NCBI GenBank assembly: GCA_963575745.1
Contig: CAUYUJ010000226.1
Location: forward strand, 186,001 to 250,000
Origin: Prorocentrum cordatum
Taxonomy: Eukaryota
DNA: 64,000 nt
Reading direction: 5' to 3'
Part shown: positions 9,101 through 54,961 of the stretch, in pieces
Layout: every line of letters begins with the position of its first letter
How positions within the stretch are numbered: position 1 is the first letter of the stretch
Translations under genes and position numbers: made by a program
The notes under the pieces: generated by a model
The model's database searches: none
Told to the model about the DNA's origin: nothing
What the model saw: only the letters and a program-made list of their open reading frames with translations

Positions 9101-9652
9101 TGGGCCGAGAGAAAGCGCGCAGAAACGAGTAAAACGCCAAGCAAGAAACTGGCAAGAAGGACGCGAGAGAACAGCCAGGCTGGAGGCTGAAGCACGGGGG
9201 TGCCGGAGGAGCAGGTGGAGGAGGAGGGCGAGGGAGGAGAGGAGGCGGGAGGAGAGGGACGAAGACGTGGCATGGGGGGACGCTGAGCGGGGCGAGCGTG
9301 GATGGAGAACTTGGCCCTGCCCCCCCCCCCTGCTGCCCACGAACGGGGGGCCGCGCGCCCGTGCTGGCGGCGTGGCCTCTCCCTCCTACTCTCGCCCTCG
9401 TCGGCGGCCGCCCCCCGGCGGCCTCCCCGCCTCCGCCTCTCCCTCCCGGGCCACCCTGCCTCTCTTCTCGTGGCTGCCACCGGCTGCCTCTGCGCTCGCC
9501 GGCTCTCCCCGCTCGGCTGGTCCCCTCGCCCGCGCCCCGCCGCCCCCCCCCCCCCCGCGCGCCGTCTCTCCCGCGCGCGTCCGCCTTCCTGCCACACGCC
9601 TCTCCCGCCTCCTCCCCCTCTCCCGCCTCCTCCCCCTCCTCCTTCCTCCTCC

Positions 9653-9707
9653 TGCTTCTTCTATTCTCTGTGAGCAAGCTCCTGCTGTCTCCGCAGCTTC
9701 TCTGCCC
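9653..9707 (+). repeat. Split direct repeat A1 (55 bp)
   Basis: tgcttcttctattctctgtgagcaagctcctgctgtctccgcagcttctctgccc, identical to 20073-20127. Confidence 0.95.
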
Positions 9708-9743
9708 AAGTGCCCCCCCGTCGGCCGCGCGTGCGGACGCCTT

Positions 9744-10358
9744 ATGCAGGCGGTCGCACAAGCGGCTCTCGGGGGCGCTGGGGAGATCTTCTTCAGGGGG
9801 CTGCGGGCCGCGCTCTACGAGCGGATCGTGTCTGCCCCCCTCTCTGTGCTTCAGGACCAAGGGCCTCCTGCGCCTGCCTGGTCCATCCAGCAGGCGGACT
9901 CGTCCGAGGGTGAGGGGGCTTACTGCCCCCTCCCTTCGGCGGGTTCCGCCTGCCCCACCGTCTGCCTCGTGCTGGCGGTGGATCTGAGCGGCGGGGTTTC
10001 TCCCTGGCTGCTCAGCACGGTCGTCGCCCTCCTTTGGGTGACGGCCGCGTGCAGCGCCTGCGCAGGCTGCTGCATCGGGCTGCTGGGCCCGTACGTGTGG
10101 CGGAGGCTCAGGGCCTCCGCCTGGCCGCGCGGTGCGGTTCCTGCTTCCCCTGAGCAGGACCGCCGTGCGGCGCGAGCGCTGGCTTACGGGGTTTTTCCTG
10201 CCTTTTTTTATTTTTTTTTTCGTTTTTTTTTTATTGTTGCTTTTTTTTTTTATTTTCTTTATTTTTTCATTTTTTCTTTTTTTTTTTTTCGGCCTCGAGC
10301 GCTCGAGGCGGGCAGGCGCCCGCAATTCGGGCGGCAGTTGCCACGACAGCGTCATTGA
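9744..10358 (+). CDS. ORF0 of the YR element: small hypothetical protein with a predicted transmembrane segment
   Basis: ATG at 9744, just after repeat A1. Contains the hydrophobic run WLLSTVVALLWVTAACSACAGCCIGLLGPYVW followed by RRLR. The 3' part runs into a poly-T tract, so the true end is uncertain. Confidence 0.45.
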   Translation: MQAVAQAALGGAGEIFFRGLRAALYERIVSAPLSVLQDQGPPAPAWSIQQADSSEGEGAYCPLPSAGSACPTVCLVLAVDLSGGVSPWLLSTVVALLWVTAACSACAGCCIGLLGPYVWRRLRASAWPRGAVPASPEQDRRAARALAYGVFPAFFYFFFRFFFIVAFFFYFLYFFIFSFFFFRPRALEAGRRPQFGRQLPRQRH

Positions 10359-10447
10359 TGGTCCTTTTGTTTTGATTTTTTTGAGTCATTTCACCCCCAC
10401 TTTCATCCTTTTTTTTATATTTATTTTTTTTTTTTTTTGTTTTTTGT

Positions 10448-12379
10448 TTGCCACCAGTTGGCGGAGGGCCTCTATGGCCCGAGCTCTACCCCTTCGCGGC
10501 TCCCACGGCTCGCGATTACGCACGATGGCGCCTAGACGACGGCGACACCAGCTGGGCAGCTATCCCCCTCGCGTCTCGAGAAGGGGGCATCCTTCTGGCC
10601 CTGCCTGGCGCCTTTCGCTCTACGGCGGAGCTCGTGGCTGCCGAGGCGGATGGCTTTGCAGGAATGATAGGCCCTTTCCAGCTAGTGGACGTCCTGCTCC
10701 AGGGGGCCGCTTCACGGCCGCTCGCCACTACTGCATCCGTCCTCGTCGTAGACATCGAGGTTGCAGAGCTCGAGCTCGAGTCGCTTTACCCTCTAGAGGT
10801 CGGGGAGGACGCAGTCATCGTTCCCTTCGCCGAGGTGCGGGGCCGCGTCTACTGGCCACATCCTTCGGGGGTTCGGGTGCTTCGCGAGGGCTACGCACGC
10901 TTGCACGGCGCCCCGCCTACTGCAGGAGAAGAGCCGCTCCCAGGGGCCGATCGGGCTACTCCCTATCACTCTGCCGACGAGATGGAGGAACCCGAGGGGT
11001 TCGCGGCCGACGGGGAAGCCGACCGCACGGCCCCAAGTGCGCGATCTCCCGCGGACGCTGGAGCGCCGCGCGGCCCGCCCGCGAAGCGCGCGGGCACCGC
11101 CGCGCCGCCACGGGTTGCGGGTCCCGCTCCGATCGCTCCTGGTGCCCCTGCGGCGTCTCTGGACGACGGGGCTCCTATGACCCGTGCCGAAGTAGCTGCC
11201 GAAATGCGCGCCTTGCTTGCAGCCCACGCGGCCTCCACGATGGTCGGCAGACCCGAGCCGCTGGGCCTCGCGCCGGCTGCCCGGAGCGATCGGCCCGAGG
11301 TGCCTCAGCTTTTCAGCGACGAAGCGGTGCGCCTCGGGCTGGATCCTGCGGGGATCGAGGCCGTCCTGTCTCACGCGCCCGTGGCCCCACAGCGGGTCTC
11401 CGCGCGTCCCAAGGGTCCGACCTCCGCGCTGGTCTCGGCGTGGGAAAAGGCGCGCTCTCTTGCTGTCCCTCGGGCCCCTTCGTCCGGTTTCGGAACGATG
11501 GGTCCCCCGCCGCCTCCTGGGCTAGCCCATCCCGCTGCGGCCGACGGCTTTGCCGAGGCGGGCGGCGCCGACGGGTCAGAGCCGCCCCATGCGGCCAATC
11601 CGACGGACTTCAGCCTCATGCTACAGTGCCTGCACCAGTCCCTCCTATTGCAGCAGGGGCGGGGCCATCGCCCAACTGTCCATCCGCTTCTGGGGACCCT
11701 GAGCGACTCAGCTCAAATTCCGCCCACGAGCTCGGGCGACCCCGCGCCCGCATCGGCCCAGATGGGGGGCATTGCTCGGAGGCGCGAGTGGCAGCAAGCG
11801 CTGCTACAGCACGGCCCCGATGTGCGAGGACTGTTGAAGGAGAATTTGGCCCGTGTCCTGGGCGTGGAAGTCAGCGCCGTGACCCCCATGGCCATGCATC
11901 AGTATTTTCGGGAGCACAGTCCCTTGGGGGCTCAGCCGACGACGCACGAGTTGTTGACGCATTTTGCCTTCCTCAGCGCCGAGCTGTGGCGGGCCTGCGA
12001 AGAGGGCAACCCCGAGAGAGTCCAGACTTTACTGACGTGTCAGTGCATGTTCATCGACCAGCTGGCGGGGGACCGCGGCTATCTCGAGGCCGCCTGGTTC
12101 CTTACGGGGCTGGAGCCTCCCCCGTGTCGCGTGACCAGTCGTCACACGGAGCGCGAGGCCCAGACCCCGTTCTCACCCCTGGTGGATCCTCGCTGGCTGT
12201 CGGCGCAGGGCGAATACGTGAAGGAGCTGCATGCATTTCGGGCGCGTCTCGACGCCGAGCGCGCCGTCGCGCTCCCCAAGCATCCACCTCATCAGCCCAA
12301 GCAGCCCAAGGTTTCGAAGCCCCCCTCCAAGTCCCAGGGTGCGTCCAAGGCACCGAAGGCGGTGCCCAAGAAGGACTGA
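10448..12379 (+). CDS. ORF1, gag-like protein of the YR retrotransposon
   Basis: 643-codon ORF directly upstream of RT. Globular N- and C-terminal regions (…FIDQLAGDRGYLEAAWFLTGLEPPP…PFSPLVDPRWLSAQGEYVKEL), a Pro/Ala linker and a Lys-rich tail. The gag call is positional; the start codon is uncertain (TTG at 10448). Confidence 0.7.
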   Translation: MPPVGGGPLWPELYPFAAPTARDYARWRLDDGDTSWAAIPLASREGGILLALPGAFRSTAELVAAEADGFAGMIGPFQLVDVLLQGAASRPLATTASVLVVDIEVAELELESLYPLEVGEDAVIVPFAEVRGRVYWPHPSGVRVLREGYARLHGAPPTAGEEPLPGADRATPYHSADEMEEPEGFAADGEADRTAPSARSPADAGAPRGPPAKRAGTAAPPRVAGPAPIAPGAPAASLDDGAPMTRAEVAAEMRALLAAHAASTMVGRPEPLGLAPAARSDRPEVPQLFSDEAVRLGLDPAGIEAVLSHAPVAPQRVSARPKGPTSALVSAWEKARSLAVPRAPSSGFGTMGPPPPPGLAHPAAADGFAEAGGADGSEPPHAANPTDFSLMLQCLHQSLLLQQGRGHRPTVHPLLGTLSDSAQIPPTSSGDPAPASAQMGGIARRREWQQALLQHGPDVRGLLKENLARVLGVEVSAVTPMAMHQYFREHSPLGAQPTTHELLTHFAFLSAELWRACEEGNPERVQTLLTCQCMFIDQLAGDRGYLEAAWFLTGLEPPPCRVTSRHTEREAQTPFSPLVDPRWLSAQGEYVKELHAFRARLDAERAVALPKHPPHQPKQPKVSKPPSKSQGASKAPKAVPKKD

Positions 12380-12405
12380 GGGCGCCTTTGGCGCCCGCCT
12401 CCTGG

Positions 12406-14589
12406 ATGGGTGGGCCTTCGCGGGGCCGGGGTACGCCTCCGCACACAGTCTGCACCGACGCTGTTGCGGCTGCTAGGCGCGTTTGGGCTCAGCGAGGGCG
12501 TGAGGGTAGGAATGCGCTCTTCCAGCGATGCTGTTGCGGCCCCGCAGGGAGGAGTACGTTCCGCCACCACGCCCTTCGCTCTGCTCCGAACCGCTTCTCG
12601 GATCCCTTCGGCCATTTTGGCCGACGCCTGCCTCAGTCGAGCGCGCCCTCCAGGGGGCCTGCAGCTCCTGAGGTTGGTGTCCCTGCTGGTGCCTGTTCTC
12701 CTTCAAGCACCCCTGCTGCTCTTGCCAAAGTCGCGCCATTCGTCGCTGAATTGTCTGCCTTGCTGCGCCTGTTTCCAGGCGCGAACATTGATATCACCCA
12801 CTGGGCGGCAGCGCTGTCCCAGGTTGGGATGGGTGCTCGATGTTCTCTTGGATCTTTCTCCCGCTCATCTATGCGTGCAATGGACCGGGACGACCCGTGC
12901 CTTTTGGGGCCGCCTCCCCGCGATCCTTGGCCGTGCCCGCCTGATCCACCTCTTGGTCCCCCGCCTGACGGCTTGTCGGCGAGGCGCAGGGAGCGCTGGA
13001 GATTGCGGCGCGCGGCGCGGACGCTCGCGCAGTATTCAGTTATTGCGTTGAATTGGCTCACCTTGGGTCATCCTAGCCTCGCTCCCGCCGAGGCTCGCGT
13101 CCGCGCCACGGTCTCGCCCTGCCAGGAGGGCGTCCGCACCCGTATCGAACGGTTGTGTCGGATCGCAGTTCGCCTCGCCCGTGGCGGCAAGTGCGACTTA
13201 GGTCGAGCCTTCGCCAAGTTCGACTCCACTGAGGTCTCGCTCCATGGCCTGGCCACCCATGTTGCAGCTTTGGAGGCCTCCTTCACTTCCTCTTCTTCCG
13301 TACCCGCCCCCATGCGGCACTGCCTGACCAGCGCTCCTTCTGTGCCTGGTTCGTTGGCGGCTGCGGCGGCTTGGGACTCCACCCAGGCCGAGCCCTTCGA
13401 TTTGAAAGTCAGGGCGTCTCGCATCAAGTGGGTTTATTCGCCAGAGTTTGATCCCGTTCCCTTCCTCTCCGACGCTCGAGTCCGCGAAGCTTTCATCGAT
13501 CCAGAGGTGATGCGGCTACCGGCATCAGAGTGGCCTGCTGGCCAGAAGGGAGCGCGCGTCCATATGGACCGCGCCGAGCTGTGGGCCCTACTCCAGAAGT
13601 GGGATGCCTGTGGCGCCCTGTACCTGACTCCTGCTTCGGACCTCGCCTGGGATGAAGCCTGTGGAGCCTTCAGGGTACCGAAGGACAGCGATTTCGACAG
13701 GCTGATCCTGAACCCCACGGTCGTGAACAGCCGCTGTGCTTCAATTTCGTCCAGCACCCAGCGCCTCGGCCAAGGTTTCCTGCTGTGCCGTTTGGGGCTG
13801 GCACCTGGGGAATGGCTGGCAGTTTCTTGTGACGACCTTCGGGAATTTTACTACACGTTCCGCGTCCCTCCCGCGCGTGCCAGACGTAACGCCCTGCGCG
13901 TTCGCCTGCCATCCTCTCGTTTCAAGGCATTTCGAGCCTGGCGCCCCGAGCTGGAGGGTGTGGATGTCGCGCCCTGCCTCAATGCTCTGGCGATGGGCGA
14001 CAACATGGCTGTGGAGATTGCCAACTCTGCGCATGAAGGCGTCTTGCACAGCTTCGGGGCTTTGCGGCCTCACGAGCAGGTTGTCCACCGCTCGCCCTTC
14101 CCGCGGGGCCCGTTTGTCGAGATGCTGAATATTGATGACCACACAGGTTTTCAGAAGCTCTCGTGGCGTGGCTCCGCTCCTCGCCCCGACGACCCGTGTC
14201 GCCGTGATCGTGAGGTCTTTGCCGCCTGCGATGCGGGCTACCCGCGCGTGGGCCTGATACAGCATCCAGGCAAGCGCGCGCGCGGCGAAACGCACAAGGT
14301 GGTGGTGGGCGCCGAGGTGGAGGGGCGCATAGGCATCGTCTGCGCTCCTCGTGTGCGGACGGTGGCCTTGTGCAGACTGACCCTGATCCAAATCTACCTC
14401 GGGATCACCACCCGCTCCCTGCTAGCCTCTCTTGTGGGCTGCTGGGTCCAGGTCTTCCTCTATCGCCGCCCGATGCTCGCCATCTTTACGCACGTCTACA
14501 ACTTCTTGTCGCGCCTGGCGACGAGGACGGCATCGAATACGACTTGCCCCCTTATGTTCGCGACGAGCTTCTGGCCTGCACCTTTTTAG
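12406..14589 (+). CDS. Reverse transcriptase (DIRS-type); continues into RNase H across a frame break at ~14500-14530
   Basis: Motifs GAFRVPKDSDFDRLILNP (~13660-13715), SCDDLREFYYTF (DD at 13831), LAMGDNMAV (~13987), MLNIDD (NIDD at 14128-14139), and thumb-region LVGCWVQVFLYRRPMLAIF. ATG 12406 is the first in-frame ATG after the ORF1 stop. Confidence 0.9.
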   Translation: MGGPSRGRGTPPHTVCTDAVAAARRVWAQRGREGRNALFQRCCCGPAGRSTFRHHALRSAPNRFSDPFGHFGRRLPQSSAPSRGPAAPEVGVPAGACSPSSTPAALAKVAPFVAELSALLRLFPGANIDITHWAAALSQVGMGARCSLGSFSRSSMRAMDRDDPCLLGPPPRDPWPCPPDPPLGPPPDGLSARRRERWRLRRAARTLAQYSVIALNWLTLGHPSLAPAEARVRATVSPCQEGVRTRIERLCRIAVRLARGGKCDLGRAFAKFDSTEVSLHGLATHVAALEASFTSSSSVPAPMRHCLTSAPSVPGSLAAAAAWDSTQAEPFDLKVRASRIKWVYSPEFDPVPFLSDARVREAFIDPEVMRLPASEWPAGQKGARVHMDRAELWALLQKWDACGALYLTPASDLAWDEACGAFRVPKDSDFDRLILNPTVVNSRCASISSSTQRLGQGFLLCRLGLAPGEWLAVSCDDLREFYYTFRVPPARARRNALRVRLPSSRFKAFRAWRPELEGVDVAPCLNALAMGDNMAVEIANSAHEGVLHSFGALRPHEQVVHRSPFPRGPFVEMLNIDDHTGFQKLSWRGSAPRPDDPCRRDREVFAACDAGYPRVGLIQHPGKRARGETHKVVVGAEVEGRIGIVCAPRVRTVALCRLTLIQIYLGITTRSLLASLVGCWVQVFLYRRPMLAIFTHVYNFLSRLATRTASNTTCPLMFATSFWPAPF
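12505..12554 (+). repeat. Internal 50-bp direct repeat, copy 1
   Basis: ggtaggaatgcgctcttccagcgatgctgttgcggccccgcagggaggag, 49/50 identical to 17741-17790. Confidence 0.9.
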
Positions 14590-17500
14590 CCTTTACGGCT
14601 ATAACCGACCTTCGGGCGCAGCCTTGCCCCGAGGTGTTCGGTACGGACGCGTCTCTCGGCTGGGGGGGCGTTGTCCGCGCTCCTATCAGCCCGCAGCTCT
14701 CCGCCGAGCTGTGGCGCAGATCGGAGCACGGGGGGTGGCACGCGATCTTGCACAATCGGAGCCTCCTCGCCGTACTCAGCCGCGGCGTGCCCTTGGGCCC
14801 TGAGCTCACCCAACTGCATCACGACCTGGGGCTCCCGTCTATTGAGCCCCCCGTCGCGCCGCGTTGGGTCACCGAGCTATCAGAGGCGCTGCGCTTTCGG
14901 CTCGCGTACAAATGGGAGTTTCGCATGCCTCGTCACATCAAAATCCTTGAGACCACAGTGTATAAGAGTCTGTGCAAATACTGTTGTGTTCGCCTCCCTG
15001 ACTCTCGTATCCCCGTTCTCCTGGATTCAAAAGTGGCTTTGGGCGCGACCGCGCACGGGCGCAGCAGCTCTCCTGGTCTATCTCTTGTTCTCTCGACCAC
15101 TTTGCCCTATGTGATAGGAGGAGGTTTATATATGGGAGGCATGTACGTGCCCACGGACGTGCATAGGGCCGACGATCCCACGCGCAACCGCGCGGTGAGG
15201 CCCCCGTCCCGTGACCCTCCCGCCTGGTTAGTGGAAGCCGAGAGAGGAGAATTTACGCGCTTTGATTGCATCGCGTACGCCGACTCTCGCTCGCCATTCC
15301 CTACCTGTCTCTGGGGCCGATTTGTTGCGCAGCTTGTGGCTCGAGGCCCCGAGGGGTTGCTCAGCCACCGTTGGGCGGCCGCCCCCCCCCTCTCGGTGGG
15401 CGCGGGGATGGCCGCCGACGCCGCCGGCGACGGCGCCCAGGGCGAAGCCCTCGACCCCTCGGGCGCCGCCGAGAGCAGCTGCGAAGCTGCTCTCGCCAGC
15501 GGAGAGCGTCGCGGGCCTCGCAACGCGCTCTTCGCTGACAGCGACCGGCCTCTCACATCCACAGCAGACGCCACGCCCAAAGCGTCTGCGTCCTCGGAGG
15601 GCGGCTCGCACGGCCCCGACCCTGCCGCCGCCAGCGCTGGTTCGGCTCCCCCGGCCGCCAAGCGTGCCCCGCCTCTGGCCCTCCGCTCCAAGGCCGCGGC
15701 GGCCCCTCCGCCTGCGATCGGGGGGGGCTCGTCGCGCGTCGGCTCACGGGAAGCGCCAAAGGGGGCCACGGCTGCTACCCCCCGCATCTTCCAGCGAGCG
15801 GCCAGGGTGAGCGCCTCTCGCCAACTGCTTGGCGTCGTGGACGGGGCCTCGCGCAGCACCATCGAAGCCGCCTTCAGGCGCCAGTCCCTAGTCTACCATC
15901 CAGACAGGACTCCTGCGCACTTGGGGGCCGATGAGCGAGCAGCCCGCGCGCTCAACTGGAAGCAGCTCTGTGACGCCAAGTCAGTGTTGCTCCAGGCCCT
16001 CTCGCAGGCCGCCGCGCCGCCCGCTGGTCCTAGCACGGGCGGTGACGGTCCTGCCGCTCGCGCCTACGCCCAGGCAAAAGCGGCAGGGAAGGGCGCCCGC
16101 AAGGGCAAGCTGGCTCCTGGGTCGACCATGGCCCTTCAGGCGCTCGAAGAAGCGGTCTCTTCGCGGGTCGCCCTGGCGAGTGCCGAGCTGGCCCCTCGGG
16201 CTGCCCTCCCCGCCTCGGGCGCGCCTCTCCCAAGGAGCGGGGTTTCGTCTGCCCTCGCGACGCGGGCGGCTGAGTCTGATGCCATCCTCGCCTCCGCCGT
16301 GTCGCGCGGCCGCGTGGAGCTCGACGCACTCCGCACCGCGCGTGCCGACGCCACCAGGCGCACGGTGCAGGCTCCTGCACGCGGCGAAGGCGAGCGTGCC
16401 GTCGCTCGTGCCGAGCTCGCGGAAGGGATGGCCGATCGCGCCTACTTCCGACGCTTGCGCGAGGCCGCCAGTCGTGAGGCCGCGGGCTTGCCGCGTACGG
16501 CTCCCGTCCAGCTGGGTCGGGATTGGCGCAAAACTCTGCGCGCCGTCCTGCACAACGCTGAGGTCTCGACGGGCCTCGCCAACGCGGATCGTGCCGCTCG
16601 TGCTGGGGACGCCCCCGCGTCGTCCACTGGGCGCTCCCTGGCCGAGGTGGAAGCTGTGGACCCGCGCGCCTTGGCGAGACCTGCCGACGACCCAGCGTCC
16701 AGCTTCAGCCGTCGTGAGGGGCGCGCGGTCCGCGCCCGCCTGGGCCCGCGGGACGAAGCTGTCGAGGACCAGCCCAATCGCGGGGGTCACGCGCCGCACT
16801 CCGCCTCGCGCACGGGCGCCACGCGCAACAGGCGCGCCAAGAAGCAGCGGCGAGCTTCGACGGCGGCGCTCCCCGCCCCTGAGGGGGGGGCCGCCACGAC
16901 GCCGGGCCGCAGGGCGCGTCGCACTGCTAATGCGCGCCGCTGGGCAGGCGCGGCACGCCCCAGCTCCGCCGCGGGAGTGGGCCCTCCATCGCGGAGCCGC
17001 AGCCCTGCCCGCAGCCGCACGCGGTCTCCGAACCCGTACGGGACTGATCACACCTCTCCCTCGGGAGGCTGCTCCTCGCCTCCCATCGACGGCTCGATCT
17101 CGCCTGAGGAGCCTTCGGGGCCGCCGGCGGGGGAGGCATCGGAGGGCCCGCACACTCCTGACGGGTCTCCGCCCGCGAGCGCCCGCAGCCGCTCGAAAGC
17201 GGAGCCCGCGTGCGAGGAGGACTCTCCGACGGAGCTCGAGGACGTCGTGCTGAGTGCCCTCGCTGACTCCTCGGTGGACCTCGAGCGCGTCGTGGCGGGC
17301 CTGAACCCCGAGGTCCTCCTCCGCTTGCAGGCGGCCTTCCCTCGCCGCGCGGAGGCCTCTCCGCCCGCCGCTCACGCCGCGGCTCGCAGCCGCTCTCGGG
17401 GCCGCGGCACGCGTGCAGGCTCCGAGACGCCGCGGCCCGTCCCCCCGCCGCCGCCACCACCCCGTCACCACTCTGGTGGGCGTGCGGCGTCGCGATCCCG

Positions 17501-19904
17501 CGGGTCGGCCGCCGGCCAGGGGCTTAGTCGAGCGAACGCGCGCGACTCCTCTCGTGCGCCTTCGCGTCAGGCGACGTCGCCTGGGCGTCGCGAGGTGCGC
17601 TCCCCTCGAGTCGCTCCGAAGCGTCGCCCGAGCCCCGCCACTTCGCAGCAGCCAGCCACGCCCCGCCATGGTGCGAGCTCGGACGTCGCCTTCGCAGGCA
17701 GCTCCCGCGCGGACTCCGCTGCTCAGGCCCCTCCGACTTCGGTAGGCATGCGCTCTTCCAGCGATGCTGTTGCGGCCCCGCAGGGAGGAGGGCGTGCCGC
17801 CGAGGAAGGGGGGTCTTCGAGTGGCTTCGCGCTTGGCCGAGCTTCAGAGCCCGAGCTGCATCTCAGCGGCTCTCACAGCGGTGACGCTGGAAGCGCCGCG
17901 GCTGCAGCCTTCGCAGCGCGGCGCGCGGCCTCTGCGGCCGCTGAGCAGCCCTTGCCTCCAGGGGCCGCCAGCGCCCTAGCGTGGCGCCTCAATATCGGCG
18001 ATGAGAAGATCACTGTGGTGAGGTGGGGACCCGCCTGGCAAGCTGCCTTCCAGAGCGCGGCGTCGTGGCTGAGGTCTTTCGCACCCGCAGGGGCCGCCGA
18101 GCCCGAGGGCAAGGATGACTTGCACTGCCTCCTGCGGGCCTTGCACGCCTACAAGCGCCTGTTTCAGACAGGCGGCGCCGAGCCGATCGACGAGGCCTCG
18201 TGGTTGCATCCTTACGTGGCCGTCGTCGAGCCCGAGGCTATCCCCGCGCATGCTGACCTCCAAGCCATGGGGGCGGGCGCCATCCGTGGCATCGGGCTCG
18301 GCTCAAAGATCGAGCAGCGGCGGCGCGCGGGCAAATTGGCCTGCCTTTTCGACCTTCTGTACCATGTGCAGGACAGTCACGGCGCCATCCCAGCAGCGCT
18401 GTGGGGATCCCACTCCCCTCCGTCCGAGATCCTCGACGCCTTCGCGGAGGTGGTGCCCGTTCCACATCATTCGGGCTTCACGTCCTCGGCAGCTCGTTCC
18501 GAGCTCGCCGAAGCAGCCGCGGCTGCGCGTGCCGAGCCGCGCCCGCCTTTTGACTGGGCGACCCTCGAGGGAGGGGGCGCTCTGCCAGCCGAGATCGAAG
18601 CAGGGGCTCGCCGCGCCTACCGTAACATGGGCGGATCCTTCAGCTCGGCGCGGGCGATGCTGGCGGAGGCGTCGGGGTTCGAGACCTACGGGCGGGACGC
18701 CCTCGTTCCGCCCTTCTACGCGTCCAGGCGCAGGAGGGCCGCCACGCTGATCAGCTCTCCAAGCCCTGGCCGCCCTGCGCTCATCCTGTGGTGCGTCTGC
18801 GGCCTCTGCATCTCTCTGGGAGCCGCGGCGCCGACCGCAGGTCAAGGGCTTAGTCGGGCTGCGCCGTCCGCGCCCGCTCGCCCTCCGCGCACTCCCTTCG
18901 TGCGCGATTCTCACCTCACCTCCGCGTATCTCGACCGTCGCTCGAGATCGATTGATGCCTTCGAGCTGTGGTTAGCAGAACACACTGGCGTGCCACCCGC
19001 CACACTTTACCGAAGCGGGATACTTCTCGCCCGTTTCCTCGCGACCTTCGGCGTGTGGCTTCATGATGCAGGTTTCCCTCATTATATTTTGGTCCATGCC
19101 ATCTTGGGAATCCAAAGCGCCCATCCGCATTGGAAGGCCTTTCTGACAGAAGCTTGGGACGTAGCGAAACAATGGAAGCTTGCGGAGCCGCCAAAGCTCC
19201 GTCCCCCCTTGCCACGCGCGCTGCTGCGCGCCATGGTCGGGCTCTGTCTCGCCTGGGACTGGCCGGTGATGGCGGCCCTGCTGCTCATGGGCTTCACGAT
19301 GTTCCTCAGGCCTGGCGAACTGCTGGCGTCACGCCGCTGTGACCTGTCGCTTCCATGCGACCGTCTCGAAGTTGAAGGGGATGCTTTTCTTTCGATTCTT
19401 GTTCCAAAGACCAGAAGAACGTACCCGACGCAACATGCTCGCTGCTCCGATCGGGGCGCGGTGAAGGTATTGAATCAAGTGTTTGGGAGGTTGGCTTCCA
19501 CCGATCCTCTCGCCCCCTTCGGCGCGAGCGGCTTCCGTACTCGGTGGAATCATCTGCTTTTGGCTCTGGGCGTCCCTCTTGCCAAAGCAGGTCAGGGGCT
19601 CAACCTGACGCCCGATTGTCTGCGGGGCTCTGGCGCAACAGACTTCTATATCGCTACGGAAGACGTCCCCCGCGTCTTCTGGCGAGGGCGCTGGCGTCAA
19701 GCTTCCAGTGCCGAGCGCTACCTGCAAGCCGCCGCCGCCTCCACAGTTCTTGCTGCGCTGCCCGAGCACGCACGGGCTCGTATCTTGTTCTTCGCCACCG
19801 CCAGCGACCGCCTTGTCGCTTCGTTCCTCCAAGTCGGCCCCGCCGCTTGGCCTGCCCTGCTTGCGGCCGCCCGCCAAAACCTTGTCACTTCGCAAGGTCC
19901 TTGA
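14370..19904 (+). CDS. RNase H - J-domain - low-complexity linker - unknown domain - tyrosine recombinase polyprotein
   Basis: A single stop-free frame of 1844 codons holds RNase H motifs, an HPD J-domain and the YR catalytic residues. The functional part probably begins at ~14510 as the continuation of RT. Confidence 0.85.
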   Translation: MQTDPDPNLPRDHHPLPASLSCGLLGPGLPLSPPDARHLYARLQLLVAPGDEDGIEYDLPPYVRDELLACTFLAFTAITDLRAQPCPEVFGTDASLGWGGVVRAPISPQLSAELWRRSEHGGWHAILHNRSLLAVLSRGVPLGPELTQLHHDLGLPSIEPPVAPRWVTELSEALRFRLAYKWEFRMPRHIKILETTVYKSLCKYCCVRLPDSRIPVLLDSKVALGATAHGRSSSPGLSLVLSTTLPYVIGGGLYMGGMYVPTDVHRADDPTRNRAVRPPSRDPPAWLVEAERGEFTRFDCIAYADSRSPFPTCLWGRFVAQLVARGPEGLLSHRWAAAPPLSVGAGMAADAAGDGAQGEALDPSGAAESSCEAALASGERRGPRNALFADSDRPLTSTADATPKASASSEGGSHGPDPAAASAGSAPPAAKRAPPLALRSKAAAAPPPAIGGGSSRVGSREAPKGATAATPRIFQRAARVSASRQLLGVVDGASRSTIEAAFRRQSLVYHPDRTPAHLGADERAARALNWKQLCDAKSVLLQALSQAAAPPAGPSTGGDGPAARAYAQAKAAGKGARKGKLAPGSTMALQALEEAVSSRVALASAELAPRAALPASGAPLPRSGVSSALATRAAESDAILASAVSRGRVELDALRTARADATRRTVQAPARGEGERAVARAELAEGMADRAYFRRLREAASREAAGLPRTAPVQLGRDWRKTLRAVLHNAEVSTGLANADRAARAGDAPASSTGRSLAEVEAVDPRALARPADDPASSFSRREGRAVRARLGPRDEAVEDQPNRGGHAPHSASRTGATRNRRAKKQRRASTAALPAPEGGAATTPGRRARRTANARRWAGAARPSSAAGVGPPSRSRSPARSRTRSPNPYGTDHTSPSGGCSSPPIDGSISPEEPSGPPAGEASEGPHTPDGSPPASARSRSKAEPACEEDSPTELEDVVLSALADSSVDLERVVAGLNPEVLLRLQAAFPRRAEASPPAAHAAARSRSRGRGTRAGSETPRPVPPPPPPPRHHSGGRAASRSRGSAAGQGLSRANARDSSRAPSRQATSPGRREVRSPRVAPKRRPSPATSQQPATPRHGASSDVAFAGSSRADSAAQAPPTSVGMRSSSDAVAAPQGGGRAAEEGGSSSGFALGRASEPELHLSGSHSGDAGSAAAAAFAARRAASAAAEQPLPPGAASALAWRLNIGDEKITVVRWGPAWQAAFQSAASWLRSFAPAGAAEPEGKDDLHCLLRALHAYKRLFQTGGAEPIDEASWLHPYVAVVEPEAIPAHADLQAMGAGAIRGIGLGSKIEQRRRAGKLACLFDLLYHVQDSHGAIPAALWGSHSPPSEILDAFAEVVPVPHHSGFTSSAARSELAEAAAAARAEPRPPFDWATLEGGGALPAEIEAGARRAYRNMGGSFSSARAMLAEASGFETYGRDALVPPFYASRRRRAATLISSPSPGRPALILWCVCGLCISLGAAAPTAGQGLSRAAPSAPARPPRTPFVRDSHLTSAYLDRRSRSIDAFELWLAEHTGVPPATLYRSGILLARFLATFGVWLHDAGFPHYILVHAILGIQSAHPHWKAFLTEAWDVAKQWKLAEPPKLRPPLPRALLRAMVGLCLAWDWPVMAALLLMGFTMFLRPGELLASRRCDLSLPCDRLEVEGDAFLSILVPKTRRTYPTQHARCSDRGAVKVLNQVFGRLASTDPLAPFGASGFRTRWNHLLLALGVPLAKAGQGLNLTPDCLRGSGATDFYIATEDVPRVFWRGRWRQASSAERYLQAAAASTVLAALPEHARARILFFATASDRLVASFLQVGPAAWPALLAAARQNLVTSQGP
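14540..15190 (+). other. RNase H domain (DIRS-type)
   Basis: TDAS (14643), HIKILE (14934; cf. HINxLE), LLDS and RADDPTR (15165; cf. NxADxxSR). Confidence 0.88.
15813..15996 (+). other. DnaJ/J-domain embedded in the retrotransposon polyprotein
   Basis: ASRQLLGVVDGASRSTIEAAFRRQSLVYHPDR…ARALNWKQLCDAKSVL matches the J-domain pattern (LGV…IxxAF/YRxxxxxxHPD…AxxxL). HPD is at 15897-15905. Confidence 0.8.
17741..17790 (+). repeat. Internal 50-bp direct repeat, copy 2
   Basis: 49/50 identical to 12505-12554 but read in a different coding frame. Confidence 0.9.
18915..19904 (+). other. Tyrosine recombinase domain
   Basis: FLRPGE (R at 19308), PKT, PDCLRGSGAT (the HxxR box with D in place of H), GRW and ERYLQ (Y at 19719), preceded by a helical core-binding-like region. 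Confidence 0.92.
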
Positions 19905-19915
19905 GCACGGGTATG

Positions 19916-20070
19916 GCTGCCTCGCCGACATCGGCGACCAGACGGACTCCACCGTCTGACGCGCGGCGCCCCGGCTTGAGCGCGCGGGACGGGCCTGCCC
20001 ATTTTGGGCCGCCCCGCGCGCGCACGCCGCGGCCGCGCTCGGAGACAGCTCGCTAGCGCGCGAGCGGGAG
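19916..20070 (+). repeat. Split direct repeat B1 (155 bp)
   Basis: Near-identical to 20162-20320; the two differ only in one short GC-rich patch (net 4 nt). Confidence 0.95.
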
Positions 20071-20072
20071 AA

Positions 20073-20127
20073 TGCTTCTTCTATTCTCTGTGAGCAAGCT
20101 CCTGCTGTCTCCGCAGCTTCTCTGCCC
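20073..20127 (+). repeat. Split direct repeat A2
   Basis: Identical to 9653-9707 and separated from B1 by 'aa'. Confidence 0.95.
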
Positions 20128-20161
20128 CCCTCCCTCCTCTCCCACTCTAAGGCTGACGGGC

Positions 20162-20320
20162 GCTGCCTCGCCGACATCGGCGACCAGACGGACTCCACCG
20201 TCTGACGCGCGGCGCCCCGGCTTGAGCGCGCGGGACGGGCCTGCCCATTTTGGGCCGCACGCCCGCCGCGCGCACGCCGCGGCCGCGCTCGGAGACAGCT
20301 CGCTAGCGCGCGAGCGGGAG
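20162..20320 (+). repeat. Split direct repeat B2 (element 3' end)
   Basis: Copy of 19916-20070, followed by a (CCT)n-rich flank. Confidence 0.95.
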
Positions 20321-21258
20321 CTCCTCTCACTCCTCCTCCTCCTCCTCCCTCCTCCTCCCTCCTCCTCCTCCTCCTCCTCCTCCTCCTCCCCCTCTCCTCC
20401 TCTTCCTCCTCCTCCTCGTCCTCCCTCTCCTCCTCCCCTCCTCCTCCTCCTCTCCCCCTCTCCCGCCTTCTCCTCCGCCATCTCCCCTCCTCCGCCGCCG
20501 CCGCCGCCGCCGCCTCCTCCTCCTCCTCCTCTCCTCCTTCTCCTCCTCCTCCTCTTGCTGTTCTGTTCCGTTCTCCCTCCCCACCTCCCGGCCATCCTTC
20601 CTTCTTCCTTCTCCCTTCGTCTGCAGTCCTGCGCTCGCCATTTCTCTGCCAGTGCGCCGTTCTGGCGCCGGGCCCGACCTGCCTACCTACATCGTGTCAT
20701 CCTCTGGAGCCCCACGAGTCGACTTTGGAGGCCCAATTTGCGCGCGCGCGCGTGCGCTCGTGGGGCCGTCTTGGGCCCTTCTTGGGCCCGTCTTGGGGCT
20801 AACTTGAGCCCTCCTGCATGTATTCTGAGGCCTCAAGCGCCCATCAGAAGCGACAAGGCGGGAAGGCAACAACACATTGACGTCCTATAGGTGTTTGAAG
20901 GGTTTTGAACCTCTTTGGGGCCTCCTTCGAGGCTTCGTGGCCACTTAGTGCCGCCGTGTAGCGGCCTTGGGGCTTCCTTGAGGCATCGTGGAGGCCATCC
21001 TAAACCATCTTTGATGTCTAAGCCATCTTGGAGGTCACCTTCAGGTTCATCGGGCCCTGATGGAGCCATCTTGGACGCTCTGACCCGTCGCGACCTCCCA
21101 CCCCTCCGTCCAGAGCCAGGGAAGGGGCAGGTGGAGAGTGAAGCTACTCGCAAGCCGCAAGGCGTCTCGCTCACTCCCACCCGCCCTCCCAACACGTGAG
21201 TTGCACCCGAGAGCCTCATTCAGCGGTCGCAATTGGATGGACAGCCACTGGAGACCAG

Positions 21259-21427
21259 TACACCTTGGGCGATGCTCAAGAAAACCTAAGTTTTCGGCCA
21301 GAGTCTCGATTATTCTTCATGTTTCAATGTAAATCCTAAGATTTGAATGGGCATTCTGGGCTTTTATTTAAGTTCTGAGACTATCAATTTCTTAACCCAT
21401 GATTTCTAAAGCATTTCGCAGGGTGTA
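21259..21427. mobile_element. CACC…GGTG MITE with 2-bp TSD (Tc1/mariner-like)
   Basis: Family-consensus imperfect TIR caccttaggcgatgcttaagaaa / tttcttaagcatttcgcagggtg; TA flanks (coordinates include the TSD). Confidence 0.85.
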
Positions 21428-21989
21428 CAGACGCCAGATGCGCGATGCGGGCGACGTGCGCCACGCGCACCGGGTGCGCCGGGCGTCCCAGGGGCGCAAA
21501 CGTGCCCTACATGCGCTAAGCGTGCCGCGTGCTCCACCCGCGCCAGGTGCGCCAGTACACGTGACACGCGCGTGGGGGACCATGTCGCTCCCCGCACCAA
21601 TCTTCCTCCCTCCGCCCCTCCCCCCTCTCGAGGGAGGGGGAAACCACCCCACGACCCCGACAGTTGGCGTCTGCGACGCGGCGGCCCTGGGCATTTGCCG
21701 CACGACCCTGCCTCGGTCGATCCTTTCCTTTCGCACGTTTTGTTGAAGGCTTCGCTTGCGGGGGTGCTTATCAGAAGGATGGTTATTCGGCCCCCCCTCC
21801 TCCGCCATCCGCTCCGCCTCGCGCTGCCCCCCCTCCCATGCCCCGCCGATCCCTCGGCGAAGGCCTCCCCCGCCCCCGCGGATCGCGTGCGCGCAGGGGC
21901 GGCGCCAGTGAGCCTCTCCCCGCAGGAGGCCCGCCGGGACGCCCTGCGCCCCGACGAACACCTCGACGCCGACGACGACAAAGGCGACG

Positions 21990-27829: not shown

Positions 27830-27998
27830 CACACCTTAGGCGATGCTTAAGAAAACTTTCGTTTTCGGCCAGAGTCTCGATTATTCTTAATGTTTCAATG
27901 TAAATCCTATGAGTTTGATAGAAGTTGTGGGTTTTTACTCAAATTCTGAGACTATGAATTTCTTAACCCATGATTTCTTAAGCATTTCGCAGGGTGCA
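27830..27998. mobile_element. CACC…GGTG MITE
   Basis: Same family, flanked by CA/CA. Confidence 0.85.
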
Positions 27999-34889: not shown

Positions 34890-35887
34890 GTCGCCATTTT
34901 ACGAAGAGGGAGCAATTGCATTAATCTTCTAATTTGTTATGTACCTCGCTCGAAGAAGAAGAAGAAGAAGAAGGCGAAACTGCATAAGCCTAAGCTGTCG
35001 GAGCTCTGCGCCGATCCTCTACTCCGCGCGGAGCTCCGAAAGTGAATGCTTACGCGGGTCTGTTCGTCCTCGATTCGCACTGCACAGATCCAGACGAGCC
35101 AGGTTCTCGAGGCCACGGCCTCACCCACCTGGTCTGGCCTAGGCCCGCATGCTGTCCGCAGCGGTGGCCGCACCGCATCGCCACTGCAGAGTCATAGACT
35201 TCCGGCGCTCCGCGCGGATCTCCTGGGTCGGGAATCTCTTTGGTCGGCGACTGGGCTCCCCTGGCGGCGCCTCCGGCGCCGCGCCTGACGCGCTCCGCAC
35301 GCAGGGGGGCGGGATCCAGCGCCGAGGAGGAAATCTGCGCTGACCTCCGATGCGATGCGATACGATGAGCCAGCTGAGCGACTCGACCAACTCGGGGCCG
35401 AGTGCGCCGATGCAGTCGGGGCCCTGAAGAAGGAGCCCTTTTCGTGGGGGAGGGGCTCCGTGTTCCTTAAGTGTTTCGCAGTTTGCCTGAGATTTTCCTT
35501 ATGTTGTCGATCGGAAATCGAAGTTTAATTTATGGAAAAAAGGGGCCTCGTCCCTTATTTAGGGTTCCTTCGGTCAAGACCCTCACTGCATAGTGGCGCA
35601 CGCCGTCCGCGTGAGCGCTCTCGTTTACCGTTTCCGATGTTGCGTTCCGCGCTAGCGGACCGAGTAAGCTGCGGTGGAAGGTCGCTGGGGCTTCTCGCGG
35701 AAGACCCGTTCATTGCCGTCGCACAGTTGGGCCCACGACTCCGGCCCGATGCGATGCGCCTCGGGTCACGGCTATCGGCCAGGGTTCGCCCGCAGGCGGG
35801 CGCGGGGATTCGATGCCGATTTGATTCGGGTCGACTCGCTGGCAGTCCGACCTGTTTGTTTCCCAGGCTTGCTAGCTGGGGTCGGCG

Positions 35888-36055
35888 TACACCTTAGGCG
35901 ATGCTTAAGAAAACCTAAGTTTTCGTCCAGAGTCTCGATTATTCTTAACTTTTCAATGAAAATCCCAAGATTTTGATAGAAATGCCGGGTTTTATTCCAT
36001 TTCTGAGACTATGAATTTCTTAACCCATGATTTCTTAAGCATTTCGCAGGGTGTA
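35888..36055. mobile_element. CACC…GGTG MITE
   Basis: TA/TA flanks. Confidence 0.85.
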
Positions 36056-54578: not shown

Positions 54579-54780
54579 CGCGTACGTCCTTCGTGGGTTC
54601 CCTATCTGTGCTTCGGGGAGGCCTGTGCCTTTCGGGAGGCCCGCACCGTCTGCCCTTCCCCCCCCCTCCGGGCGCGCCGCCCAGAGGAGCCTGGGAACCG
54701 GGGCAACATGTTCGTCTTCGAGACGGACCGGGTTCCCTCCCGGGCGCCCGAAGTTCTGGGCCTCCTGGACGGGGTCGGAG

Positions 54781-54949
54781 TACACCTTAGGCGATGCTTA
54801 AGAAAACTTAAATTTTCGGCCAGAGTCTCGATTATTCTTAATGTTTCAATGTAAATCCTAAGATTTGAATGGAAACTTTAGGTTTTTATTCAAGTTCTGA
54901 GACTATGAATTTCTTAACCCATGATTTCTTAAGCATTTCGCAGGGTGTA
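54781..54949. mobile_element. CACC…GGTG MITE
   Basis: TA/TA flanks. Confidence 0.85.
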
Positions 54950-54961
54950 CAGTCGAGGCGC

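Follow-up and report, generated by a model that had tools for sequence, protein, structure and literature searches.

The 64,000-nt stretch analyzed here (the window, positions 186,001 to 250,000 of Prorocentrum cordatum contig CAUYUJ010000226.1) contains a tyrosine recombinase (YR) retrotransposon of ~10.7 kb, spanning window positions 9653-20320, and the segment of its polyprotein frame encoded at 15813-15996 on the forward strand is a genuine stand-alone J-domain, made up of helices I to III with the HPD loop between II and III (Table 1). The reading that we favor, and consider fairly probable, is that this J-domain is an integral, lineage-specific part of the polyprotein that recruits Hsp70 in cis. 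In general, the HPD motif of a J-domain and the basic side of helix II engage Hsp70 in its ATP-bound form, and the hydrolysis that this sets off locks Hsp70 onto a nearby client. This docking and hydrolysis mechanism is treated in PMC13254874.

The segment translates as ASRQLLGVVDGASRSTIEAAFRRQSLVYHPDRTPAHLGADERAARALNWKQLCDAKSVLLQ. Against the Pfam DnaJ profile (PF00226, gathering score 27.8 bits) the 61-residue piece scored 33.5 bits (E 4.7e-8), covering profile positions 5-53 of 63. A phmmer search of the segment against PDB sequences gave 46 matches at E<=1, of which 44 are J-domain proteins, the best being DNAJB1 (6z5n, E 2e-5); the remaining two are a methyltransferase (E 0.43) and a formyl-THF dehydrogenase (E 0.93), both weak. 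Aligned with the PDB J-domains, the segment displays the pattern LG...AS...I..A[YF]RRQ.L.YHPD. An AlphaFold2 model of frame residues 514-600 (15753-16013; 87 residues, two-row alignment) had a mean predicted local distance difference test score (pLDDT) of 85.9 and contained helices at residues 9-26, 34-48, and 59-86 of the piece, with the HPD in a loop at residues 49-51. Compared with the PDB by Foldseek, all ~50 matches listed for this model were J-domains, typically with a root-mean-square deviation of 1.3-3.4 Å over ~58 residues. The J-domain call is judged sound because the Pfam score, the PDB sequence matches, and the fold matches of the model all support it. An initial annotation of this DNA had claimed a J-domain with an intact HPD, and had proposed a DnaJ profile search and a structure prediction as checks; both returned a J-domain match, and the claim is borne out by the 33.5-bit Pfam score, by the PDB sequence matches, and by the J-domains that alone make up the Foldseek matches listed.

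The segment lies within a stop-free frame of 1896 codons (14214..19904, forward strand). Its 903-codon spacer, 15372-18080, contains no stop in this frame vs 8, 20, 5, 11, and 11 in the five others; 1000 dinucleotide shuffles of the spacer gave a mean of 8.5 stops and a minimum of 2, and since none was stop-free, a chance open frame in the spacer was rejected. GC content at the three codon positions of the J segment is 0.69/0.51/0.77, resembling the reverse transcriptase (RT), RNase H, and YR parts (~0.65/0.52/0.70), whereas the low-complexity stretches are flat; the resemblance to the enzyme-like parts likewise argues against a chance frame. Because the DNA is GC-rich (60-66% in the window overall and 75% at 16-18 kb), long open frames do arise by chance in the window, and other frames at 16-18 kb contain open stretches of 453 and 620 codons. 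This composition is what would speak for the J region not being protein at all, that is, for its being intronic or an untranslated spacer, for a chimeric assembly, or for a chance GC-rich open frame with a fortuitous likeness to a J-domain, as would the origin in ~1-kb contigs of the gene models of the three database proteins that cover the region (P0112, P0010, and P0084; see below). We nevertheless consider this explanation highly improbable: besides the profile E-value with its PDB sequence and fold matches and the shuffles just described, the contigs of four sequencing runs and the three database proteins bridge the RNase H part, the spacer, the J-domain, and the sequence beyond it in frame, and differences between copies are biased to third codon positions.

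The family is a young, multi-copy YR retrotransposon with split direct repeats, although the window itself holds a single copy. Sequence 15500-16500 was found in part in 20 of 24 listed public runs (16 studies), many of them marine, seawater, estuary, and freshwater metagenomes. Contigs from four of the runs were placed on 13000-19910 at a likeness of at least 85%, yielding 4451 for X1, 261 for X2, 358 for X3, and 42 for X5; among those of X1, 1707 are at least 99% like the window, 1711 are 95-99%, 960 are 90-95%, and the remaining 73 are less alike. From the RT part through to the recombinase, summed depth stays even (681, 55, 558, and 4.6 in the J bin of X1, X2, X3, and X5, respectively), and no insertion or deletion falls inside 15813-15996 among the differences listed for the run contigs. 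A host J-protein gene lying beside the transposon is ruled out by the even depth, by the bridging contigs, and by P0010. The initial annotation had placed the J-domain in frame between RNase H and YR, which holds insofar as a single frame joins the RNase H-like part, the J-domain, and the YR; in the window copy the RT-like part is read in a different frame, with a one-base break near 14521. An extra base at this place, present at all of the depth in X2 (58.5/58.5) and X3 (545/545) and in a minority in X1 (44.7/149.6), makes the RT-like and RNase H-J-recombinase parts one frame. The break is thus a peculiarity of the window copy, and the element would be translated as one polyprotein.

Copy differences were assessed at the best-supported 40 of 545 variant places. 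In the proposed frames 25 are synonymous and 15 are replacements, whereas the other two frames would give 7/33 and 13/27; the third-position excess in this frame argues that it is not a chance frame. Within the J segment, four of the six differences among those 40 are synonymous, and the two replacements, S548G and N581K, are the residues of P0112. Three independent, diverged database proteins extend the comparison. P0112 (253 aa, ENA) contains the J-domain with CHPDK and then lacks ~233 residues that are present in the window; it is identical to the window at 72% of J-domain residues (44/61), at 41% of the spacer preceding it (21/51), and at 71% of the Arg-rich stretch at residues 831-920 (57/80). 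P0010 (212 aa) runs from the end of RNase H (81% identity) through the pre-J spacer (48%), its contig ending in the first J-domain residues, and P0084 (162 aa, JGI) starts at the last J-domain residues and continues beyond with 75% identity (115/154). On these alignments the J-domain and parts of the spacer after it are kept much better than the spacer before it. The absence, frameshifting, or HPD degeneration in most copies that the initial annotation had raised as counting against the J-domain is not what the copies display: depth is even across them, and the diverged P0112 keeps the HPD.

Spacer length varies between subfamilies, as judged from the ~233-residue gap in P0112 and from two contigs of X3. 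One of these has 15076-16538 (the end of RNase H, the J-domain, and 540 nt beyond) swapped for 978 other letters; the other skips 16148-16755. Scans of metagenome, viral, and genome contigs for related DNA found no relative, the one candidate (L001) being a bacterial DnaJ that was dropped.

Copy number and age also bear on whether the J-domain might be a mere passenger, i.e., a fragment of a host J-protein gene captured into the spacer, unused, and undamaged for no other reason than the youth of the family. Many copies are indeed recent, 38% of X1 contigs (1707/4451) being at least 99% identical to the window; the domain lies in fast-evolving, low-complexity sequence; relatives do without it; and only six J-domain variants are among the best 40 of 545. 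We nonetheless think a passenger unlikely. The J-domain of P0112 is 28% diverged yet keeps its frame, the HPD, and the basic pair of helix II, while the spacer preceding it is 59% diverged; the synonymous excess is found in the proposed frame only, and the 903-codon spacer is stop-free where shuffled sequence averages 8.5 stops. A search with the J-domain alone against longer proteins found no donor gene and no close cellular homologue, a weak blank, as the same search missed P0112 too.

The distribution of the domain among relatives points to a local gain. With frame residues 90-700 as query, HMMER matched 1638 representative proteins at E<=1e-3, nearly all of them in the RNase H-like part; protein searches centered on the J-domain region yielded P0084 and P0112 and no others. 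Pfam DnaJ was detected in one of the top 150 relatives (P0112) and in none of three further long proteins. Forty of these 153 reach at least 250 residues past the end of RNase H, and DnaJ is in none of them; 16 of the 40 also have the RGxGA motif of the recombinase. Between the end of RNase H and RGxGA lie 303-354 residues in 10 of these 16 and 617-765 in six, vs 1479 in the window element. With the J-domain in one of 150 relatives and in none of the 40 long ones, the J-bearing spacer is thus a gain of one sub-lineage. Between RNase H and the recombinase, 24 of the 150 relatives (P0004, P0014, P0021, and P0023 among them) carry a 2A-like peptide, GD[IV]ExNPGP or R[IV]GEAxNPGP. The frame of the window element has no NPG or PGP anywhere, ruling out a hidden 2A peptide, and reads WGRFVAQLVARGPEG at the place aligned with the 2A-like peptides (~15380-15420). 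As aligned, the J-bearing spacer (~1150 extra residues, mostly low-complexity) stands at the very junction where relatives have their 2A-like site. In P0004, P0005, P0006, P0014, and P0021, the RNase H-like part is itself split by an insert of ~350 residues with a conserved GPPC / G[VP]PC...FGTLRRP motif, in which Pfam finds nothing; the window element has only ~90 residues (14700-14930) at this place.

The favored reading, an integral J-domain that recruits Hsp70 in cis, would work as follows. The lineage would have lost the 2A-like peptide, and the J-domain, the conserved Ala/Arg/Leu-rich stretch, and the Arg-rich stretch would now lie in a low-complexity spacer. With its HPD and the basic side of helix II, the J-domain would engage the host's cytosolic Hsp70 in the ATP-bound state and cause it to hydrolyze ATP, and Hsp70 would then clamp neighboring parts of the same polyprotein. 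Loaded in cis, it could keep soluble a polyprotein of ~2400 residues, over 1000 of which are low-complexity, and might help the RT-like part to a template-competent state or to assembly with RNA into a ribonucleoprotein, for which hepadnaviral RT is the precedent. Binding of Hsp70 by the element's J-domain, and the step of the cycle that benefits from it, are what we infer here. The roles that the initial annotation had proposed for host chaperones, in RT activation, particle assembly, or mobilization linked to heat stress, are plausible possibilities. A bolder proposal, which we put forward only tentatively and believe to be improbable, is that the lineage has internalised the very co-chaperone on which its RT depends: its RT and RNase H would bear a distant likeness to those of hepadnaviruses and need Hsp70 for RNA competence, and the J-domain and Arg-rich stretch, in replacing the ancestral 2A break, would make activation act in cis and tie transposition to the availability of Hsp70 in the host, and so to stress.

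The same evidence for a functional J-domain would also serve a domain aimed at the host, redirecting Hsp70 in the manner of T antigens so that complexes of the host (silencing, stress response, or nuclear entry) are remodeled or removed, perhaps as part of a separate product ending before the recombinase. The T antigens are a reported precedent (PMC11720896); a 61-nt direct repeat found before both the RT module (12505) and the pre-YR region (17741) could mark separate expression units; and relatives set the recombinase apart with a 2A-like peptide. On the other hand, the frame runs unbroken across 17741-17801, no motif for targeting the host was identified, and the present evidence fits action in cis and action in trans alike. 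We regard a host-aimed J-domain as quite unlikely.

Several observations weigh against an integral J-domain acting in cis. On the whole 1896-residue frame the DnaJ score is 25.9 bits (E 1.1e-5), and that of P0112 is 25.7 bits, both under the gathering score. Every Foldseek E-value for the model exceeded 1e-3 (0.015 and up), as is expected for a domain of only ~60 residues, and the model has no separate helix IV, helix III extending to the end of the 87-residue piece. The window copy carries the frame break; X1 is not independent evidence, as it is possibly the window's own source sample; and the 40 of 545 variant places do not cover the HPD across all copies. Stretches after the J-domain are conserved as well as the domain (71-75%), so that the constraint may not be J-specific. 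Finally, all other relatives work without a J-domain.

The enzyme labels in the initial annotation fared unevenly. The C-terminal part is confirmed by its predicted fold as a tyrosine recombinase: an AlphaFold model of the last 374 residues, with 22 relatives in the alignment, had a pLDDT of 86.2 and 45 Foldseek matches in the PDB at E<=1e-3, those listed all being tyrosine recombinases, led by Cre (3crx, E 2.2e-7) and followed by Xer proteins and the Tn1549 integrase. In the ESM Atlas, 17 of 30 matches of this part are Phage_integrase clusters (0.99). The RT and RNase H labels are probable only, because they draw on motifs, language-model leads, and two sub-threshold profile hits. The RT-like motifs occur in their usual order (VPKDSDFDRL at 13675, YYTFRV at 13849, LAMGD at 13987, and IDDH at 14131), and 23 of 23 long relatives keep both the Asp at the motif A position and the DD pair; the nearest named ESM Atlas clusters are RVT_1 (score 0.97, 19 of 30 matches). 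Hepadnaviral P-protein clusters were also among the matches of the RT-like part, at 0.88-0.90. The D, E, D, and D positions of the RNase H-like part are invariant or nearly so in relatives, two of which, P0058 and P0078, matched hepadnaviral RNase H (PF00336) with 20.5 and 16.3 bits, below the cut-off of 22.4. The RT-like, RNase H-like, and recombinase parts had no match in Pfam (E<=10), NCBIfam, or PHROGs, nor did a profile of 23 relatives match any PDB sequence. The family as a whole is unseen by Pfam apart from stray weak hits, and NCBIfam and PHROGs were blank for the seven sequences tried (three window segments and four long relatives); elements of this kind are therefore left without annotation in metagenomes and in protist genomes.

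Table 1. Features of the retrotransposon in window coordinates.
Feature	Position	Strand	Remarks
Terminal repeat A1, left end	9653..9707	+	55 nt, 100% identical to 20073-20127
ORF1, gag-like position	10385..12379	+	664 codons, open frame
61-nt internal direct repeat, copy 1	12505..12565	+	Between ORF1 and RT module; 93% identical to 17741-17801
RT-like module	12870..14521 (start approximate)	+	Frame 10042; aligns with P0004, P0005, P0006
One-base frame break	14521..14522	+	RT frame 10042..14589 vs RNase H-J-YR frame 14214..19904
RNase H-like module (probable)	14523..15371	+	TDAS 14643, HIKILE 14934, LLDSK 15018, ADDPTR frame residues 319-324
Pre-J spacer	15372..15812	+	Ala/Ser/Pro/Gly-rich (composition)
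Modeled helix I	15777-15830	+	AlphaFold2
J-domain segment	15813..15996	+	Pfam match 15825-15989; PDB sequence and fold matches
Modeled helix II	15852-15896	+	AlphaFold2
HPD codons, loop between helices II and III	15897-15905	+	Sequence and AlphaFold2
Modeled helix III	15927-16010	+	AlphaFold2
Post-J spacer	15997..18080	+	Ala/Arg/Leu-rich, then Arg-rich (~residues 831-920), then low-complexity Ala/Ser/Arg/Pro
61-nt internal direct repeat, copy 2	17741..17801	+	Upstream of pre-YR region
Pre-YR region	18081..18917	+	~280 residues, less biased composition
Tyrosine recombinase, both lobes	18918..19901	+	RGSGA at residue 1804, GRWRQ at 19686; GRW...Y C-terminal
Terminal repeat B1	19916..20070	+	~155 nt, 97.5% identical to 20162-20320
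Terminal repeat A2	20073..20127	+	100% identical to A1
Terminal repeat B2, right end	20162..20320	+	97.5% identical to B1

The ends of the element are split direct repeats in the order A1...B1-A2-B2. The identity of A1 and A2 starts exactly at 9653, with a CT-rich microsatellite to its left, and B1 starts 12 bases past the stop codon of the RNase H-J-YR frame. The flanks on both sides are microsatellites, CT-rich CCTCTCCCGCCTCCTCCC units on the left (9597-9652) and CTC units on the right (20321-20555), which suggests that the element was inserted into, or prefers, such repeats. A Pfam scan of ORF1 found no family. A long T-rich tract (10192-10450) lies between A1 and ORF1, its second block (10389-10450) overlapping the annotated start of ORF1.

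The 61-nt repeat begins GGTAGG and contains CCGCAGG, and the reading frame differs between its two copies. At 17741 and 17801 the contigs of X1, X2, and X3 fork, with free ends similar to the sequence flanking the copy at 12505, and depth rises there. From its sequence the repeat could be a processing, splice, or start signal. The spacer was also considered as an internal duplication of upstream sequence, a possibility rejected when blastn and tblastx found only the 61-nt repeat. Pfam found no family in the post-J spacer. Its Arg-rich stretch (16700-16970, ~residues 831-920) has runs such as RNRRAKKQRR and GRRARRTANARRW and would fit an RNA-binding or nuclear-import segment, a candidate by composition only. 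The pre-YR region, with no Pfam family and no match among the 153 relatives, is possibly another lineage-specific module.

Elsewhere in the window, Rfam and tRNA scans found nothing, and Pfam searches of 114 other open frames of at least 180 codons gave only BUD22, at 22.8 bits vs a cut-off of 37, in repeat-rich sequence. A dispersed repeat of ~170 nt has four window copies with 88-92% identity (21257-21430, 27831-27996, 35887-36055, and 54779-54952).

Most of what is known about the dependence of RTs on chaperones comes from hepadnaviruses, which take the co-chaperone from the cell; a retrotransposon encoding its own J-domain would be a natural experiment on this dependence. The accessory domains of YR retrotransposons would gain a new type, and an HPD mutant would offer a simple way to study the control of transposition by chaperones and stress in an abundant protist of aquatic habitats. 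Were the co-chaperone truly internalised, the element would be the first known case of a retroelement that supplies its own recruiter of Hsp70. The literature searched, subscription journals and Repbase lying outside that search, yielded no J-domain in a YR retrotransposon or in any other retrotransposon; the one match on the DnaJ domain (PMC9940879) mentions DnaJ in an unrelated context. The main text of a survey of ~280,000 J-domain proteins (PMC10410713) is without mention of reverse transcriptase, transposon, integrase, or retro, and one supplement of it has no RVT, Phage_integrase, RNase_H, or rve.

Among known systems, the A1...B1-A2-B2 layout is described in PMC6681497 for Ngaro-, PAT-, and VIPER-like elements. 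With YR retrotransposons of the DIRS order that have split direct repeats, the window element shares the order of its repeats, the order ORF1-probable RT-probable RNase H-YR, and a multi-copy state, but the divergence of its RT-like, RNase H-like, and YR parts puts them beyond the reach of Pfam, NCBIfam, and PHROGs. Accessory domains described for the DIRS order in the same paper are a methyltransferase or a hydrolase, in agreement with what the initial annotation had said of YR retrotransposons; the window element instead has a J-domain, within a spacer of ~1150 extra residues. Similarly, 2A-like peptides are reported in non-LTR (long terminal repeat) retrotransposons (PMC3708506), and relatives of the window element carry NPGP forms between RNase H and recombinase, whereas the element itself has none; no literature linking 2A peptides to YR retrotransposons was found.

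Polyomavirus T antigens are reported to use host Hsc70 through their J-domain (PMC11720896 and PMC8567380). Like the window element, the large and small T antigens belong to a mobile parasite that encodes its own HPD J-domain, but they are the products of a DNA virus, and their J-domain is N-terminal. As T antigens are absent both from the 46 PDB sequence matches of the J segment and from the Foldseek matches listed, the likeness is a functional analogy and not one of membership. Hepadnaviral RT is reported to need Hsp70/Hsp40 for RNA binding (PMC2094093). The hepadnaviral P protein, which Hsp70/Hsp40 and Hsp90 activate, relies on an Hsp40 of the cell, whereas the window element encodes a J-domain in its polyprotein. 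A closeness to the hepadnaviral counterpart similar to that weakly indicated here is reported for VIPER RNase H (PMC6681497), and a kinship of the element with P protein may be taken as a weak lead. Among cellular proteins, those that are J-domain only (class C or type III, PF00226) have in common with the element's segment the helix II-HPD-helix III hairpin and the A[FY]RRxxLxYHPD[KR] pattern, and the J-domain of DNAJB1 is ~36-40% identical to it in the aligned core; the segment instead sits in the middle of a retroelement polyprotein, without a G/F or zinc-finger region.

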